DNA of 64,000 bases from a virus (Duplodnaviria; Caudoviricetes). Shown one piece after another: positions 20,925-34,352 of this stretch; the stretch's first letter is position 1, and every line of letters starts with the position of its first letter. Position numbers and translations under genes: made by a program. Location of the stretch: the IMG/VR virus record IMGVR_UViG_2974795854_000001, positions 8,980 through 72,979 of that record. The stretch is one strand, 5' to 3'. The notes under the pieces were generated by a model. It saw nothing but the letters and a program-made list of their open reading frames with translations, ran no database searches and was not told the DNA's origin.

Positions 20925-21675
20925 TACAAAGATAGTACATAAAGTCTGTTAAACCTAATTTATTTTCAATTATTTTTAATTTATTTTATAAGTCATTGAT
21001 TATTAACGTTTTACATAATTAAGTTATTTGGAGGGGTAAAAAAGTATAAAATATTTATTTGTATATTTGCATACACGCTTTATTTTTATTATATTTACAA
21101 CATATTACATACGAAGAGTTTCTAAGGGTTTGACTTACTCAAACTAAGTACCGAAGATAAAGAACCTAGCGAATAGGGAAGTAGTTAGTCGGGCTACATA
21201 TCGTTCTGGCCAAGGATAGGCGTGCTAAGATAGTTATTCGAGCGAAGGAACACTGAGGAGTGTTTGGAGTAAGAGAGGCAATTCCTCCGCCATTTATGGC
21301 TCCCATTATAACAGGAGGTTTATACTAAAGAGCGAAAGCTTTTAAACCAAATTAAGTTATATGTTTTCGTCTAAATTGTATCACTCTAACGGGTTTTACT
21401 CTTTAGCGAAGCTATATCCAGAGAGGATTACCTAAAGTATATTATAAGAGAATAAATATAGATATAATAGAATATAGATAACCTAGCCCCGAGATAAGAT
21501 ATGAGATATAAAGACTATAAAATAGAAAGTAAGAAGAAGAGTAAGTTGGATTCTAAAAAAGAAGATTCGACTGCTCGAGTTTATAAACGAAAAAATAGCA
21601 AGGTGAAGGATGCCCTATCTTTTAAAATTAGGGGCAAATCCAAATTAGCCTAGCACCAACCACCAGTTGAAAACA

Positions 21676-21708
21676 AGAAAGCCACCTTTAATTAGATGGC
21701 TTTTTTCA
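21676..21708. terminator. bidirectional intrinsic terminator at the end of tRNA operon C
   Basis: aagaaagcca-cctttaattaga-tggctttttt: hairpin with A-tract and U-tract on opposite sides. Confidence 0.8.
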
Positions 21709-21714
21709 TTTAAG

Positions 21715-21786
21715 AACTTCTAGAGGGATTCGAACCCCCAATCTACCCGTTCGTAGCGGAGCGCTTTTCCGTTAAGCTATAGAAGT
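21715..21786 (-). tRNA. trnR: tRNA-Arg(ACG), operon C
   Basis: Acceptor ACTTCTA/TAGAAGT, anticodon loop CT-ACG-AA, TTCGAAT T-loop. Confidence 0.92.
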
Positions 21787-21793
21787 GTGAAAG

Positions 21794-21876
21794 TGCATCC
21801 AGAGGGATTCGAACCCCCAATCCTTTCGGCGACAGGTTTTAAGCCTGTAGTGTATAGCCATTTCCACCATGAATGC
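21794..21876 (-). tRNA. trnL: tRNA-Leu(TAA), operon C
   Basis: ACAGG-CT-TAA-AA-CCTGT, long variable arm, A73. Confidence 0.92.
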
Positions 21877-21885
21877 ATTAGTAAG

Positions 21886-21968
21886 TACCGGAAGAGGGAT
21901 TCGAACCCTCAAAAGTCTAGGTTTCTAAAACCCAATGATCTACCATTCTCTTTTTTACTCACTCCGGT
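21886..21968 (-). tRNA. trnL: tRNA-Leu(TAG), atypical, operon C
   Basis: TGGGT-TT-TAG-AA-ACCTA, good acceptor stem and T-arm, expanded D region and only a 7-nt variable region. Confidence 0.8.
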
Positions 21969-22003
21969 ATAAAAGGGGCGTGACATTATGACACCCCCTG
22001 TGT

Positions 22004-22080
22004 TGGACAACCGTATGGGAATCGAACCCATGTAATCAGGTTCACAGCTTGACCGCCTTTCCAATTTGGCGCAACGGAGG
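22004..22080 (-). tRNA. trnH: tRNA-His(GTG) with mismatched acceptor stem and encoded CCA, operon C
   Basis: Loop CT-GTG-AA, D stem CGCC/GGCG, T-arm ATGGG/CCCAT, acceptor mismatches C2.U71 and U3.U70. Confidence 0.8.
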
Positions 22081-22091
22081 ACTCTTATAAG

Positions 22092-22163
22092 ATGGAGTAC
22101 AGGGGCTCGAACCCCGACGAACTGGCTCAAAACCAATCATGCTAACCATTACATCATACTCCA
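22092..22163 (-). tRNA. trnQ: tRNA-Gln(TTG), operon C
   Basis: TGGAGTA/TACTCCA acceptor, ATTGG-TT-TTG-AG-CCAGT. Confidence 0.92.
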
Positions 22164-22209
22164 ATGTCTAGTTTCTACTTTTTTGGGAGATACTAGTAAA
22201 CAACCTTCG

Positions 22210-22284
22210 TACTATCGACGAGACTCGAACTCGCATTGCGCACCTTGAAAGGGTGGGTTCCTACTCCATTTAGAAGACGATAGC
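22210..22284 (-). tRNA. trnE: tRNA-Glu(TTC), operon C
   Basis: GCTATCG/CGATAGT acceptor, loop CT-TTC-AA. Confidence 0.92.
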
Positions 22285-22293
22285 AAATCAAAG

Positions 22294-22365
22294 TCGAGTA
22301 GGCAGGGATCGAACCTGCATTCTCCGACGTCCAAGGTCGGCACGTGCCAATTTTGTCACTACTCG
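22294..22365 (-). tRNA. trnP: tRNA-Pro(TGG), first gene of operon C
   Basis: C1-G72, A73, CCGAC-CT-TGG-AC-GTCGG. Confidence 0.92.
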
Positions 22366-22367
22366 AA

Positions 22368-22406
22368 ATAAAAAAAGCCCCAATGGTTTGTACCAAAGGG
22401 GCTCTT
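22368..22406 (-). terminator. attenuator terminator of tRNA operon C
   Basis: AGCCCC-tt-TGGT-acaa-ACCA-tt-GGGGCT followed by a U-tract ending a few nt before tRNA-Pro. Confidence 0.85.
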
Positions 22407-22429
22407 AATAGGATATTGTGCGTTGAAAA

Positions 22430-22519
22430 CTATGATAGTTCATCAATCCCATGATAAGACACCCTCGATGGTAATCGAAGTTGTTCTAAGGGCTCTTGAT
22501 GTAATAGTCTTGCGTTCAT
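22430..22519 (-). CDS. leader peptide of tRNA operon C (MNARLLHQEPLEQLRLPSRVSYHGIDELS)
   Basis: Manual translation. Codons 5-17 are only Leu/His/Gln/Glu/Pro/Arg, the amino acids of the downstream tRNAs. Confidence 0.85.
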   Translation of the reverse strand: MNARLLHQEPLEQLRLPSRVSYHGIDELS

Positions 22520-22520
22520 A

Positions 22521-22559
22521 TTGTAAATATACAACTTTTTTTTGATATAAAAAAACTTA
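22521..22559 (-). promoter_or_regulatory. promoter repeat copy C (TATATTTA -7 element)
   Basis: Near-identical to 23761-23800 and 25359-25394, and matches the Bacteroidota TAnnTTTG-type -7 box. Confidence 0.8.
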
Positions 22560-22571
22560 TACTATTTTATT

Positions 22572-22865
22572 TTATGTTCTTGTTGGATTCTTCTTAACTC
22601 TCTTCTTTGCAGCAGCTAATTTCTTAGTATATGCACTCATACCTCCGGCCTTCTCTACGTCCTTCTTAAAGGCTGCAGATCTATTGGCGTCGTTACGACC
22701 TCTAGTTCCTCTAGCTTCTTCTTCTTTCTTAAGCTTGCCACTTGTCTTAACAGTGTACTTTTTAGCTTTAGTGTTTGCAACACCACTCTTATCAGATTTG
22801 ATCGTTACGTTTTTCTTAGGTGCAGTTTTCTTAGTTGGCACCGTCTTTCTTGTAGTTCTTCTCAT
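22572..22865 (-). CDS. small highly basic protein between tRNA operons B and C
   Basis: MRRTTRKTVPTKKTAPKK..., Lys/Arg-rich. ATG at 22865 is preferred over the track start at 22913, which overlaps promoter-like elements. Confidence 0.7.
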   Translation of the reverse strand: MRRTTRKTVPTKKTAPKKNVTIKSDKSGVANTKAKKYTVKTSGKLKKEEEARGTRGRNDANRSAAFKKDVEKAGGMSAYTKKLAAAKKRVKKNPTRT

Positions 22866-22916
22866 TGTTGTTTGTTTAACGTTAAGTAGTAAAGATACGA
22901 AAAATACAAACATAAG

Positions 22917-22988
22917 AATCGGAGACCGGAATTGAACCGGTATAGCACAGTTTTGCAGACAGGCCCCTTCTCCGTCAGGTTCTCCGAT
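22917..22988 (-). tRNA. trnC: tRNA-Cys(GCA), last gene of operon B
   Basis: ATCGGAG/CTCCGAT acceptor, U73, loop CT-GCA-AA. Confidence 0.85.
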
Positions 22989-22993
22989 ATAAG

Positions 22994-23066
22994 TGCGATA
23001 GGTAGGTTTCGATCCTACTCCTCTGGGGTTTCAAGCCAGTGCTTCTACCAAGTTAGCTTCTACCGC
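22994..23066 (-). tRNA. trnF: tRNA-Phe(GAA), operon B
   Basis: GCGGTAG/CTATCGC acceptor, loop TT-GAA-AC. Confidence 0.87.
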
Positions 23067-23146
23067 ATTAAAAAACAACAGCCAAGACCTTCTCTCGGAT
23101 TTTATGGCGGCTCCTTTACATTATAGGATGCTCTGTTGTTTTATCG

Positions 23147-23215
23147 CGCGCACCCAAAGAATCGAACTCTGTCCTACGGGGTTGGAATCCGTTTGGCCAC
23201 CATGGCCTGATGCGC
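23147..23215 (-). tRNA. trnW: tRNA-Trp(CCA) with short D-arm, operon B
   Basis: GCGCATC/GGTGCGC acceptor, G73, loop TT-CCA-AC. Confidence 0.87.
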
Positions 23216-23222
23216 ATTAAAG

Positions 23223-23294
23223 AGGCTAGGGAGAATTACGATATCTCGACCTGACGCTTAACAGGCGCCTGCTCTTCCTCTGAGCTACCTAGCC
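23223..23294 (-). tRNA. trnN: tRNA-Asn(GTT), operon B
   Basis: GGCTAGG/CCTAGCC acceptor, GGCGC-CT-GTT-AA-GCGTC, variant T-loop ATCGTAA. Confidence 0.9.
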
Positions 23295-23303
23295 GTGTGT
23301 TTG

Positions 23304-23388
23304 TAGAGAAGAAGGGATTCGAACCCTCGGAGGCGTTAACCCCACTACTTTAGCAAAGTAGCACCTTAAGCCACTCAGACACCTCTCT
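23304..23388 (-). tRNA. trnS: tRNA-Ser(GCT), operon B
   Basis: CTACT-TT-GCT-AA-AGTAG, long variable arm. Confidence 0.92.
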
Positions 23389-23393
23389 AAATG

Positions 23394-23483
23394 TGGAAGA
23401 AGTGGGGCTCGAACCCACACGGGCTTTTAAACCCCAACTGTTTTCAAGACAGCGACCCGTAGACCTACTTGGCTTACCCTTCC
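23394..23483 (-). tRNA. trnS: tRNA-Ser(TGA), operon B
   Basis: GCTGT-CT-TGA-AA-ACAGT, long variable arm. Confidence 0.92.
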
Positions 23484-23490
23484 ATTATTG

Positions 23491-23572
23491 TTGCACCGTG
23501 CGGAATCGAACCACTCCCCTCTCAAGAACTGTTTTACAGACAGCCTGCTAGAACCACTAGCTTTACGTTGCA
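23491..23572 (-). tRNA. trnY: tRNA-Tyr(GTA), first gene of operon B
   Basis: GCTGT-CT-GTA-AA-ACAGT, long variable arm, A73. Confidence 0.88.
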
Positions 23573-23577
23573 AGTTA

Positions 23578-23620
23578 TAAAAAACAAAAAACCCTCTTAG
23601 CTACGAAAGACCAAGAGGGT
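23578..23620 (-). terminator. attenuator terminator of tRNA operon B
   Basis: ACCCTCTT...AAGAGGGT 8-bp stem (extendable) followed by TTTTTGTTTTT, just before tRNA-Tyr. Confidence 0.85.
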
Positions 23621-23669
23621 AAAAATCAAAATTAATAATCAAAAATTAATAAAAGAAATGAATATATTT

Positions 23670-23759
23670 TTAAGACAAGTACAACCTCTCGACATTATAG
23701 CTACTAAAGCTACAATTCGAATACCAAGAGAAATTATTGTATGTCATGTTTGTTTTCAT
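23670..23759 (-). CDS. leader peptide of tRNA operon B (MKTNMTYNNFSWYSNCSFSSYNVERLYLS)
   Basis: Manual translation. Codons 7-22 are 16 consecutive Tyr/Asn/Phe/Ser/Trp/Cys codons, exactly the operon's tRNA set. Confidence 0.88.
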   Translation of the reverse strand: MKTNMTYNNFSWYSNCSFSSYNVERLYLS

Positions 23760-23760
23760 A

Positions 23761-23800
23761 TTGTAAATATACAACTTTTTTTTGATATAAAAAAACTTAC
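23761..23800 (-). promoter_or_regulatory. promoter repeat copy B (TATATTTA -7 element)
   Basis: 39-nt identity with copy C (ttgtaaatatacaactttttttgatataaaaaaactta-type block on the plus strand). Confidence 0.8.
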
Positions 23801-23821
23801 ATCATTTTATTTTAAAAATAG

Positions 23822-23891
23822 TTGGAATAGAGGGAATCGAACCCATCTCCACACGCATATAAGACGTGCTAACCTACCTAGGCTTACTCCA
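23822..23891 (-). tRNA. trnI: tRNA-Ile(TAT), rare UAU anticodon, reduced D-arm, last gene of operon A
   Basis: TGGAGTA/TATTCCA acceptor (nearly the same as tRNA-Ile GAT), A73, CACGT-CT-TAT-AT-GCGTG, T-stem with two mismatches. Confidence 0.8.
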
Positions 23892-24013
23892 ATAAAGATC
23901 TTGTGGTCACTATATCCACATCACACGCTGTTTTAAGGTTTATCTCTGTTACCAAAGAATGCAGGCATACGTGTTACCTAAAAGCCTATAAGTGTTTTTC
24001 ACTAAGATCCAAG

Positions 24014-24084
24014 AACCTCTACAGGGATTCGAACCCCGATCATAGCGGTAGAAGCGCCGTATTTTTCCATTAAACTATAGAGGC
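24014..24084 (-). tRNA. trnR: tRNA-Arg(TCT), operon A
   Basis: GCCTCTA/TAGAGGT acceptor, loop CT-TCT-AC. Confidence 0.9.
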
Positions 24085-24145
24085 AAAAAAGACCTACCCT
24101 TGGACACTTTGAGACGTTCTCCTAGAAGTGTGGTAGGTACTGTTG

Positions 24146-24219
24146 TACCAAATGACAGATTCGAACTATCGACCTTCTCCTTGTAAAAGAGCTGCTCTAA
24201 ACCACTGAGCTAATCTGGT
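24146..24219 (-). tRNA. trnV: tRNA-Val(TAC), operon A
   Basis: ACCAGAT/ATTTGGT acceptor, loop TT-TAC-AA. Confidence 0.9.
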
Positions 24220-24429
24220 ATATGGTAGGCATGTTACTACACCTACTTTTTTGTTTTTAACGTGGAGAAGCTTATTTCCATAACTCAAAACTCCATTACA
24301 ATACTTTTAACCTAATAAATAAAAAGGGGCTCTTGTTCACGATATCTAGTATTCGCTAAGCCCCCTTTTCAAAAAAACACTTAATCTAATGCGCTTCAAA
24401 ACTTCTCGAGAGGCGGATTAAGTCTGTTG

Positions 24430-24503
24430 AGCACTAATCAGGGATCGAACCCGAATTATCTTCGTTACAAATGAAGTACCATTTCCTATTCAGTCATTAG
24501 TGC
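24430..24503 (-). tRNA. trnT: tRNA-Thr(TGT), operon A
   Basis: GCACTAA/TTAGTGC acceptor, loop TT-TGT-AA. Confidence 0.88.
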
Positions 24504-24513
24504 ATAATTAAAG

Positions 24514-24590
24514 CGGTCTAAGAGGGATTCGAACCCTCGTTTTAGAGCAGTGACAGTGCAATTCGTGTTACCAAACACGCTTATTAGACC
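24514..24590 (-). tRNA. trnD: tRNA-Asp(GTC), operon A
   Basis: GGTCTAA/TTAGACC acceptor, G73, loop CT-GTC-AC, weak anticodon stem. Confidence 0.85.
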
Positions 24591-24665
24591 AGTTGGCAGA
24601 TGTCGATTAACTGCCGAGTGTCGTACGAACACCCTTTATCCCGAAGAGTGTAGAAACGACTTTTG

Positions 24666-24734
24666 TGGCGGGTATGGGAGTCGAACCCATCTATAAGGAC
24701 TTATGAGGCCCTCCGGTCACCACGACCACCCACA
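24666..24734 (-). tRNA. trnM: tRNA-Met(CAT) with short D-arm and unpaired 1:72, operon A
   Basis: AGGGC-CT-CAT-AA-GTCCT, U1.C72 mismatch, 69 nt. Met versus lysidine-Ile identity cannot be fixed by eye. Confidence 0.78.
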
Positions 24735-24744
24735 ATTTTAAAAG

Positions 24745-24817
24745 AGCGTAAGACGAGGTTCGAACTCGCTATCTCCTACTTGGAAGGCAGGCGCCATTCC
24801 ACTATGGCCTCTTACGC
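24745..24817 (-). tRNA. trnG: tRNA-Gly(TCC), operon A
   Basis: GCGTAAG/CTTACGC acceptor, U73, loop CT-TCC-AA. Confidence 0.92.
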
Positions 24818-24905
24818 AAATTCCTCTTTTTATAGAGTTGAGGTAAAAACATTCTCTTAGTCCAACTTTTTTCCTTTTTCTTTCTTTCGGTAGTCTTCCG
24901 CCTCG

Positions 24906-24978
24906 TTGGAATAGAAGGTTTCGAACCTACGACCTCTCCCGTATCAGGGGAGTGCTCTAACCGCTGAGCTATACTCCA
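24906..24978 (-). tRNA. trnI: tRNA-Ile(GAT), operon A
   Basis: Canonical cloverleaf, CTCCC-CT-GAT-AC-GGGAG. Confidence 0.94.
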
Positions 24979-25027
24979 ATATTACCTTATTCGCTTATAA
25001 TCCATTATATAAGCTAATTTACTTATG

Positions 25028-25100
25028 TGCCCCTGCTAGGAATCGAACCTAGCCCCACTGTTTAAAAGACAGTTGCCTACAACCTGTTTGCTACAAGGGC
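25028..25100 (-). tRNA. trnK: tRNA-Lys(TTT), operon A
   Basis: ACTGT-CT-TTT-AA-ACAGT, GCCCTTG/CAGGGGC acceptor. Confidence 0.92.
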
Positions 25101-25128
25101 AATTTGGTGTCAGTAAGGGATCTTATTG

Positions 25129-25203
25129 TGGAACTCATGGGTATCGAACCCATCTCACTCTGATTGCAAATCAAAGTCGCCTTGCCTTGGTTCATGCAGC
25201 CCC
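25129..25203 (-). tRNA. trnA: tRNA-Ala(TGC), first gene of operon A
   Basis: G3:U70 and A73 Ala identity elements, loop TT-TGC-AA. Confidence 0.87.
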
Positions 25204-25233
25204 AATAAAAAACCCTCCTTTTTAGGGGAGGGC
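25204..25233 (-). terminator. attenuator terminator of tRNA operon A
   Basis: GCCCTCC-cctaaaaa-GGAGGGT followed by a U-tract, abutting tRNA-Ala. Confidence 0.82.
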
Positions 25234-25261
25234 TGTAATAAATATCTTATATCTAAAGAAA

Positions 25262-25339
25262 TTATAGTACACGGCTCCTCCCCAAGAGTTTCACTCCCTT
25301 GGTTCTAATATCTGTCGCTATGTTCATAATTGTTTTCAT
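25262..25339 (-). CDS. leader peptide of tRNA operon A (MKTIMNIATDIRTKGVKLLGRSRVL)
   Basis: Manual translation. 16 of the first 17 codons are Met/Lys/Thr/Ile/Ala/Asp/Arg(AGA)/Gly/Val, the operon's tRNA set. Confidence 0.85.
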   Translation of the reverse strand: MKTIMNIATDIRTKGVKLLGRSRVL

Positions 25340-25358
25340 CGATCTTATTGCTTTGATA

Positions 25359-25394
25359 CAAATATACAACTTTTTTTGATATAAAAAAACTTAC
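25359..25394 (-). promoter_or_regulatory. promoter repeat copy A (TATATTTG -7 element)
   Basis: Same block as copies B and C, with a perfect Bacteroidota TAnnTTTG at 25359-25366. Confidence 0.82.
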
Positions 25395-25411
25395 TTGTAA
25401 ATAATTCTGTT

Positions 25412-25558
25412 TTAGATGTCTTTTCCGGTTTTTTCTTCAATCTTTCGCTCCAACTCGTCTGCAGCACTATTGAAATATGCCTGTAATTTAGGGTTGTTCT
25501 TCAAGATTAATGCGAAACCTGCCGCTCCGGCCAATACTCCTACTAAAAATGTAATCAT
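25412..25558 (-). CDS. small membrane protein (48 aa, MITFLVGVLAGAAGFALILK...)
   Basis: Manual translation. N-terminal TM helix plus charged tail, below the track's length cutoff. Confidence 0.6.
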   Translation of the reverse strand: MITFLVGVLAGAAGFALILKNNPKLQAYFNSAADELERKIEEKTGKDI

Positions 25559-29981: not shown

Positions 29982-30053
29982 GCTCTTTTCGTCTAGCGGT
30001 AAGGACATTCGGTTTTCATCCGAAAAACATAGGTTCGAATCCTATAGAGAGTA
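29982..30053 (+). tRNA. trnE: tRNA-Glu(TTC), early-region copy 1
   Basis: TTCGG-TT-TTC-AT-CCGAA, canonical cloverleaf. Confidence 0.92.
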
Positions 30054-30073
30054 CTAATATTAAAATTTAAGAG

Positions 30074-32434: not shown

Positions 32435-32506
32435 GCTCTTTTCGTCTAGCGGTAAGGACATTCGGTTTTCATCCGAAAAACATAGGTTCGAATCCTATAG
32501 AGAGTA
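32435..32506 (+). tRNA. trnE: tRNA-Glu(TTC), early-region copy 2
   Basis: Sequence identical to 29982..30053. Confidence 0.92.
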
Positions 32507-32526
32507 CTAATTAATACAAACTAGTC

Positions 32527-33970: not shown

Positions 33971-34329
33971 GGGGGCGACTGGTTTTGACAGGGTATAACA
34001 GTCGTTAATGTTCAGCGCAGAGAGATAACTGCACAAACTAAGGTGAAATTCTTTAAACGGAAACAACACGAATGCGGTAAACGCACAGATCGAAGCTAAT
34101 ATGGAAGCGGTAAACGCTATCCTTAACCTTGAAGTAGCAGTAGGGGTATAAGCTGACCGTTTTATCTGTTTTCTCAAAACAGTTTGGTGGAGCTTCAATC
34201 ATAACTATGGTTGGCCCCTCTAGCATAAAGAGTCTAAAGAAATGCCGTGTGTAACGATACTACACAAAAGCTGTATAAAACATTGACGATTAAGTGCTCT
34301 GGACGAGGGTTCGATTCCCTCCGCCTCCA
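33971..34329 (+). ncRNA. ssrA: tmRNA
   Basis: 5' GGGGGCG-ACTGGTTTTGACAG, 3' GAGGG-TTCGATT-CCCTC-CGCCTCC-A, G3:U70. Putative tag ORF at 34059-34151. Confidence 0.93.
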
Positions 34330-34352
34330 CTAATAATCATAAAACAATAAAG

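Follow-up and report, generated by a model that had tools for sequence, protein, structure and literature searches.

Organization of the tRNA Region

The DNA analyzed here, referred to as the window, is a 64-kb stretch of the IMG/VR virus record IMGVR_UViG_2974795854_000001, which represents a complete genome of 72,979 bp. Its transfer RNA (tRNA) region was 96% identical to that of the Cellulophaga phages phi38:1 and phi40:1 (Callevirus, Pervagoviridae) and comprised three tRNA blocks (A, B, and C), which jointly supply tRNAs for all 20 amino acids. A promoter-like box of approximately 36 nucleotides (nt) occurred in three near-identical copies in the window, each ending in a Bacteroidota-type −7 element, and behind each copy the order was the same: a short open reading frame (ORF), a hairpin with a T-run, and a tRNA block. 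An RNA polymerase gene is absent from phi38:1, which uses the host enzyme (PMC5335546), and this fits a promoter box of the Bacteroidota type. The main subject of this study was unit B, the leader in front of the Tyr-Ser-Ser-Asn-Trp-Phe-Cys tRNA operon, which was examined as a putative transcription attenuator (Table 1).

TABLE 1. Features of unit B, its sister units, and further RNA genes in the window.
Feature	Position	Strand	Remarks
Promoter-like box, unit B	23764–23799	−	One of three near-identical copies
−7 element, unit B	23771–23764	−	TATATTTA; Bacteroidota-type; ends the unit B box, 4 nt before the ATG
Leader ORF, unit B	23670–23759	−	ATG at 23759, TAA at 23672–23670; 29 codons plus stop
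Sensor run, codons 7–22	23694–23741	−	Tyr, Asn, Phe, Ser, Trp, and Cys codons only
Region 1 (anti-antiterminator)	23728–23737	−	Within the sensor run; pairs with region 2 in minimum-energy folds
Region 2 (antiterminator strand)	23684–23693	−	GTCGAGAGGT; codons 23–26; complementary to the terminator 5′ arm
Intrinsic terminator hairpin (regions 3 and 4)	23591–23620	−	11 pairs; followed by TTTTTGTTTT
T-rich tract	23578–23590	−	Directly 3′ of the terminator hairpin
tRNA-Tyr(GTA)	23572–23490	−	ARAGORN at relaxed threshold; no Rfam call; cloverleaf fold with GUA anticodon loop
tRNA-Ser(TGA)	23483–23393	−	ARAGORN default; Rfam
tRNA-Ser(GCT)	23388–23303	−	ARAGORN default; Rfam
tRNA-Asn(GTT)	23294–23222	−	ARAGORN default; Rfam
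tRNA-Trp(CCA)	23215–23146	−	ARAGORN default; no Rfam call
tRNA-Phe(GAA)	23066–22993	−	ARAGORN at relaxed threshold; Rfam above cut-off
tRNA-Cys(GCA)	22988–22916	−	ARAGORN at relaxed threshold; Rfam above cut-off
Unit A	25211–25392	−	Promoter box, leader ORF 25339–25262, terminator 25234–25211
Unit A tRNAs			Ala-like, Lys, Ile, Gly, Met, Asp, Thr, Val, Arg(TCT), Ile(TAT)
Unit C	22370–22555	−	Promoter box, leader ORF 22519–22430, terminator 22402–22377 plus T-run
Unit C tRNAs			Pro, Glu, Gln, His, Leu(TAG)-like, Leu(TAA), Arg(ACG)
Transfer-messenger RNA (tmRNA)	33971–34330	+	Long tag with unusual tag end; strand opposite to the tRNA units
tRNA-Glu(TTC), two copies	29982–30054 and 32435–32507	+	Identical Rfam scores; no leader unit ahead of either

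The Unit B Leader and Its Putative Sensor Codons

The distance of 4 nt between the end of the box and the ATG predicts that the unit B mRNA would be essentially leaderless. An earlier note on this DNA had listed codons 7–22 of the leader ORF as an uninterrupted run of codons read by the tRNAs of operon B, with all seven of these tRNAs represented. On re-reading, the listed codons matched exactly, and an anticodon decoding check bore out the rest of the statement: 16/16 codons were decodable by the seven anticodons of the operon, and each of the seven tRNAs was sampled. Standard wobble sufficed for 15 of the 16 codons, while TCT required U34 reading across a four-codon box. The seven tRNA genes themselves were recovered with ARAGORN, four at default settings and three at the relaxed threshold.

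The run of 16 was the longest stretch of the six set-B amino acids in the six frames of the window, the next ones being 12 and 10 codons long. Set B accounted for 23.5% of the residues in long ORFs, and at this frequency 1.1 × 10^−5 runs of 16 would be expected by chance. The placement of the ORF, between promoter box and terminator and ahead of the tRNA genes, was that of an attenuator leader, and the regulatory codons were concentrated in it and matched to the tRNAs that the operon supplies. In phi38:1, the leader DNA was identical over its whole length.

Predicted Terminator and Antiterminator of Unit B

The hairpin at 23620–23591 together with the tract behind it was the top match of an independent terminator scan. 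The tRNA genes began 10 nt downstream of this hairpin/U-tract terminator, and tRNA-Tyr approximately 6 nt past the T-rich tract as delimited in Table 1. In phi38:1, the terminator carried two changes, one in the loop and one that converted an A-U pair into a G-U pair. It had been proposed in the earlier note that CGAGAGG, directly behind the sensor codons, can pair with CCTCTTG in the terminator 5′ arm. This proposal held: CGAGAGG (23691–23685) was the best partner of the arm anywhere in the leader (−11.1 kcal/mol), and 1.4% of shuffled unit B leaders paired equally well with it.

Folding was carried out in two schemes. The complete leaders of units A, B, and C were folded at equilibrium with ribosome masks; in the second scheme the transcript was cut before the terminator 3′ arm, mimicking the order of RNA synthesis, and a ribosome footprint was imposed. 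With cut transcripts, regions 1 and 2 were paired in the free unit B RNA and the antiterminator probability was 0.12; because region 1 pairs with region 2 in the free RNA, untranslated RNA should terminate. Ribosome stalls at codons 2–16 favored the antiterminator, which was gone from codon 17 on. Footprint arithmetic indicated that region 2 would be masked when the A site of the ribosome lies on codons 20–22. Both results agree with the caveat, raised in the earlier note, that a stall on the last sensor codons would itself hide the antiterminator. For unit A the complete leader was sufficient: at equilibrium the terminator probability was approximately 0 for stalls at codons 2–15 and 0.99 from codon 17.

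Sister Units and Related Phages

The leader of unit C contained a 14-codon run of its own amino-acid set, the longest in the window, and in the leader of unit A 15 of the codons 2–17 matched the set of that unit. The first tRNA of block A was called by neither ARAGORN nor Rfam; based on an alignment to the annotated tRNA-Ala of Maribacter phage Panino, it was accepted only as Ala(TGC)-like.

Including the window, 21 units were compiled from three groups of cultured phages (phi38:1-like phages, phi4:1, and Panino) and from IMG/VR contigs, the contigs being found with a promoter-plus-start pattern, with a leader-independent tRNA-Pro anchor, and with a promoter-box pattern. All 21 units had a short ORF, a tRNA-matched codon set, and a hairpin with a T-run after the stop codon. 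Leader sequences diverged among the units, and a composition matching the unit's own tRNA set was retained. Cellulophaga phage phi4:1 (146 kb, from another genus) showed the same design with different leader sequences. Panino had all three units, likewise with different leader sequences, and its unit B was located 40 kb away from the other two. The ATG followed exactly 4 nt past a TAnnTTTG-type box in 13/21 units, and the spacings from box to ATG and from stop codon to terminator look constrained.

When leaders were tabulated against tRNA sets, the own set gave the longest run in every leader, 6–16 codons vs. 0–7 for unrelated sets; the run of 16 in contig L129 includes Leu, for which its operon has no tRNA, and falls to 5 when Leu is left out. 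The fetched loci also included unrelated tRNA clusters, in which the runs were only 2–6 codons long. Changes in the tRNA content of an operon were accompanied by changes in its leader. Four operons that lack tRNA-Glu and tRNA-Leu(TAA) had no Glu codon in their sensor, and their Leu codons were CTN only, vs. Glu codons and both kinds of Leu codons in the five operons with both tRNAs. The operon of contig L129 had gained Tyr and Ser tRNAs, and its leader contained Tyr and Ser codons. Two contigs of larger phages carried operons for Pro, Lys, Thr, Tyr, Gln, and Glu, with sensor runs of 10–11 codons of those amino acids only. Arg codons were divided by isoacceptor, with AGA in 4/4 cases in A-type leaders (Arg(TCT)) and CGN in 9/11 cases in C-type sensors (Arg(ACG)); the Fisher P-value for this split was approximately 0.01, uncorrected for relatedness.

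A scan of IMG/VR with the A-type antiterminator motif returned 69 loci, none of them tRNA-linked; the only A-type units known are those of the window and phi38:1, of Panino, and of phi4:1. Among the matches listed in the promoter-box scan, most were unrelated Bacteroidota-phage promoters; the Y-type units L140 and L170 were added from it.

Co-Change of Terminator Arm and Antiterminator

The hairpin with its T-run followed the stop codon at 23–50 nt in 21/21 units and at 27–31 nt in 16 of them, the unit B of the window being the 50-nt outlier. In most units the tRNAs started approximately 10–26 nt after the hairpin, a gap too small to hold a separate promoter. The best leader partner of the terminator 5′ arm was located between sensor end and stop codon in 20/21 units; the product of the chance fractions for this position was 10^−8.8, with the units not all independent of each other. 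The arms varied widely among units and the leader partner varied in step with them, giving such partner/arm pairs as CGAGAGG/CCTCTTG, GCAAGAC/GTCTTGC, ACAGGAT/ATCCTGT, TCAACTG/CAGTTGA, and GGGTGG/CCATCC. Random reassignment of the arms among the first 18 leaders gave P = 5 × 10^−5. In cut transcripts, 18/18 units showed antiterminator probabilities of mostly 0.5–1.0 for stalls on the sensor and of approximately 0 after the ribosome had passed. The pairing that excludes the terminator thus depended, in these computations, on ribosome position.

Proposed Mechanism of Unit B

Unit B is probably a ribosome-mediated transcription attenuator, in which slow decoding of the leader lets the tRNA operon be transcribed. 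The proposal starts from the sequence anatomy, its statistical improbability, and the conservation and co-change of its parts in 21 units. From these features we infer where transcription starts, that the leader is translated, that transcription ends at the hairpin, that the antiterminator takes kinetic precedence, and in which direction the system responds.

According to this model, transcription by the host RNA polymerase would begin from the repeated box, practically on the ATG itself, and the 29-codon leader would be translated by a ribosome. Shortage of any of the seven charged tRNA species would stall the ribosome within approximately codons 7–19. The stalled ribosome would mask region 1, and region 2 (CGAGAGG) would be free to capture the terminator 5′ arm (CCTCTTG) once this has been made. 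With the terminator hairpin blocked, the polymerase would enter the Tyr-Ser-Ser-Asn-Trp-Phe-Cys genes. During fast decoding, the ribosome would instead come to lie over region 2, the terminator would form, and transcription would stop 10 nt before tRNA-Tyr. Untranslated RNA would terminate as well, via pairing of regions 1 and 2. The outcome would be a negative feedback loop in which the tRNA block is made on demand, and units A and C would act alike for the other 14 amino acids.

The attenuator interpretation put forward in the earlier note was supported in its anatomy, since all needed sequence features are present in unit B and are kept in sequence-divergent relatives. It has to be qualified in two respects: the antiterminator is weaker than the terminator at equilibrium and could work only kinetically, and translation of the leader and the response of read-through to tRNA supply are predicted steps. 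The note had also suggested folding the transcript with and without a ribosome. Cut transcripts switched with ribosome position, whereas the complete unit B leader favored the terminator nearly everywhere.

Several points weigh against the attenuator model, the first group of which concerns RNA folding. At equilibrium the unit B terminator amounted to −14.4 kcal/mol vs. −11.1 kcal/mol for the antiterminator, which has to form across approximately 65 nt, and in the complete leaders of units B and C the terminator won at nearly every ribosome position. An equilibrium switch was therefore rejected for units B and C and holds for unit A alone; in units B and C the switch has to be kinetic. The trp leader of E. 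coli is likewise one in which the 3:4 hairpin is more stable than the 2:3 hairpin. Folding further placed the last 3–6 sensor codons too near region 2 for read-through. Region 2 stays uncovered in unit C and some relatives when the ribosome has come to the stop codon, so termination would hinge on timing. Pairing between regions 1 and 2 was not conserved, with antiterminator probabilities in free RNA ranging from 0 to 1 across units. Taken singly, units gave P-values for the arm pairing from 0.002 up to values no better than shuffled leaders, the latter in several units.

A second group concerns the match between codons and tRNAs. Set A consists of nine amino acids that make up 53% of the residues, and runs of 14–17 of this set occurred elsewhere in the window; the set is too large for the run length of unit A to be significant by itself. 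The leader of L129 contained seven Leu codons, but neither Rfam nor ARAGORN found a Leu tRNA in its operon. Leu was therefore dropped from the L129 tRNA set, leaving a partial match only. In L124, L128, and L131 the promoter, terminator, and tRNAs were present and the leader ORF was absent. Upstream of tRNA-Pro, these three contigs had a leader of approximately 70 nt of different sequence with a small palindrome, and their tRNAs were Pro-Gln-His-Arg-Leu. They may represent a variant under other control, or constitutive termination with some leak.

The remaining points concern transcription and physiology. RNA data were available as assembled contigs from SOLiD libraries, which give no transcript ends, strand, or ratios; judged by dates and platform, the libraries look like the published phi38:1 infection transcriptomes. 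Contigs running from approximately 22535 to 23794 crossed the unit B terminator. Molecules spanning the terminator thus exist, either as some read-through RNA or as contaminating DNA. A peat metatranscriptome run contained a 0.10 share of the sequence words, which is uninformative about habitat. Tight transcription-translation coupling is, to our knowledge, not an established feature of Bacteroidota. Stalling would also report a shortage of amino acids or of synthetase, which extra tRNA does not relieve.

Alternative Explanations

The alternative that survives best accepts that the leader is translated and that its codons matter, and assigns a different output to the stall: cleavage, tmRNA action, altered 5′ processing, or inverted logic, in which fast decoding leads to read-through. 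We consider this improbable, while giving it some weight. It would be in line with the terminators of units B and C winning at equilibrium, with the antiterminator becoming free again in several units when the ribosome is at the stop codon, and with the tmRNA that the phage itself encodes. However, an antiterminator strand just past the sensor, co-changing with the 5′ arm, is needed for stall-induced read-through and would otherwise have no obvious role, and unit A switches cleanly even at equilibrium.

Direct tRNA sensing by the RNA leader, as in a T-box, or binding of a protein to it, with the open frame being incidental, is very unlikely. Terminator/antiterminator pairs alone need no ribosome, and the three related contigs with promoter and terminator before the same tRNAs have no ORF. 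Against direct sensing, no T-box or other leader family was matched even at E ≤ 1. The signal is present only as in-frame codons, with a start 4 nt from the box and a stop 27–31 nt before the terminator in most units, and it is the amino-acid sets that are conserved and not the nucleotide sequence.

Even less credence is given to the small ORFs encoding functional micropeptides, for example Cys/Ser-rich ones, with the hairpins acting as ordinary terminators or as insulators between operons. Some of these ORFs are annotated as hypothetical proteins in phi38:1 and Panino, and the B-type leaders in Panino-like contigs are Cys-rich with a conserved C-terminal motif. This motif, however, is nothing other than the antiterminator strand. 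Beyond membership in the amino-acid set of the operon, the peptides show no conservation of sequence, leaders of A-, C-, and Y-type obey the same rule with entirely different compositions, and a terminator that cuts a promoter off from the only genes behind it would be pointless unless antitermination occurred.

A chance origin of the pattern, in intergenic DNA rich in AT, could draw on the set-A runs elsewhere in the window and on the short runs at unrelated tRNA clusters, but it is effectively refuted by the expectation calculated for the unit B run, by the random reassignment of terminator arms, and by a pattern of 21 units in which leader and tRNA set change together.

Further Features of the tRNA Region

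Sorted by the first base of their codons, the tRNAs of block B read mostly U, those of block C mostly C, and those of block A mostly A or G (window 21714–25211); exceptions were Asn, Ser-AGY, Glu, and Leu-UUR. The identical tRNA grouping and gene order were found again in phages of different genera, and based on this the tRNA cassette appears to move horizontally. Four tRNAs were atypical, being missed by default ARAGORN, below the Rfam cut-off, or both: Tyr (23490–23572), Ala-like (25135–25211), Leu(TAG)-like (21885–21968), and Ile(TAT) (23821–23891).

Within operon B, the 79-nt spacer between tRNA-Trp and tRNA-Phe (23145–23067) folded into a long hairpin with a U-run behind it (z = −2.96), and may act as an internal terminator or as a processing element that sets the Phe and Cys genes apart from the five tRNAs before them. 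Between tRNA-Thr and tRNA-Val in operon A (24428–24220), two hairpins, both with T-runs, were seen by eye. A 117-nt stretch between tRNA-Arg(TCT) and tRNA-Ile(TAT) (23894–24010) was skipped by the RNA contigs of three runs, and in phi38:1 only 5 nt separate the two tRNA genes, so the stretch appears to be a phage-specific insertion.

In unit C, a separate contig of approximately 100 nt (22441–22544; two runs from two studies) covered the promoter end and most of the leader. It was approximately eight times as deep as the contig over the tRNAs of unit C, contig depth being an unreliable measure, and it might be an abundant short leader RNA. Contig ends near 23784–23794 and a join of 25359 to 22525 coincided with the repeated promoter box and were taken as assembly effects.

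A wider reading combines several of these elements. The three attenuators might form a tRNA-depletion alarm that replaces whichever class of host tRNA has been lost, together with the tmRNA and RNA-repair genes, on a cassette passed horizontally among unrelated Flavobacteriia phages and giant phages; we regard this as tentative and rather doubtful. The triggers of such an alarm, an equally speculative part, would be anticodon nucleases, other tRNA-targeting defenses, or phage-induced shut-off of the host.

Comparison With Known Systems

Large tRNA arrays in lytic phages, as found here, are known from T4, T5, vibriophages, and mycobacteriophages. Proposed roles of such arrays are to compensate for a mismatch in codon usage, for the decay of host tRNAs, or for the action of anticodon nucleases. 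If the attenuator model is true, the tRNAs of this phage would be made when needed and not constitutively, which bears on the debate over the reason for tRNA genes in phages, be it codon bias, decay of host tRNA, or escape from anticodon nucleases. A full-text literature search found no account of tRNA genes, those of phage arrays included, being controlled by a leader peptide or an attenuator, and the phi38:1 transcriptome paper makes no mention of promoters or terminators. Unit B and its sisters would be the first case known to us of tRNA genes under leader-peptide attenuation, an amino-acid sensor turned into a feedback controller of tRNA supply. They would also surpass all known leader sensors in multivalence, a single leader sensing up to nine amino acids and the three leaders all 20. 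The model is testable in a cultured and well-studied phage of the phi38:1 type with its host Cellulophaga baltica, for which infection transcriptomes exist, and the same design in two further cultured phages (phi4:1 and Maribacter phage Panino) makes direct testing possible there as well. The units are compact, modular, and codon-addressable, and could serve as biosensors of tRNA or decoding speed.

T-box riboswitches resemble the phage units as terminator/antiterminator switches that report the status of specific tRNAs for translation-related genes. In contrast to the phage units, a T-box binds uncharged tRNA directly, by a specifier codon and the T-box sequence and with no ribosome involved, and is typical of Firmicutes, not of Bacteroidota. 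An Rfam scan of 21600–25450 at E ≤ 1 gave no T-box and no other cis-regulatory leader match of note. The pheST operon of E. coli, with its pheM leader, is a case of attenuation of a translation-apparatus gene that senses a supply of charged tRNA affected by its own product. It differs from the phage units in having a synthetase as target, in sensing one amino acid, and in being chromosomal.

The closest anatomical counterparts are the leader attenuators of enterobacteria, such as the multivalent thrL (Thr/Ile), ilvL and ivbL (Ile/Leu/Val), and, for one amino acid each, trpL, hisL, pheL, and leuL. Shared with these are a promoter-near short ORF with dense regulatory codons, a terminator with a U-tract before the genes, and an antiterminator strand gated by ribosome position; a 1:2 pairing like that of the enterobacterial leaders appeared in the folds of unit B of the window but was not conserved across units. 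Enterobacterial attenuators control biosynthetic enzymes, and all described attenuators have biosynthesis or synthetase genes as their targets, whereas the targets of the phage units are tRNA genes. Unlike enterobacterial leaders, the phage sensor samples 5–9 amino acids, each 1–4 times; the mRNA is predicted to be leaderless, and the element resides in a phage, in three parallel copies that divide the 20 amino acids among them. Region 2 lies inside the ORF in the phage units, while its enterobacterial counterpart lies after the stop codon. Judged from its DNA, the candidate element of unit B shares the attenuator features of ORF placement, matched regulatory codons, and an antiterminator pairing predicted to depend on ribosome position, and differs from the known systems in its target, in the breadth of its sensor, and in the placement of region 2 inside the ORF of a predicted leaderless mRNA.

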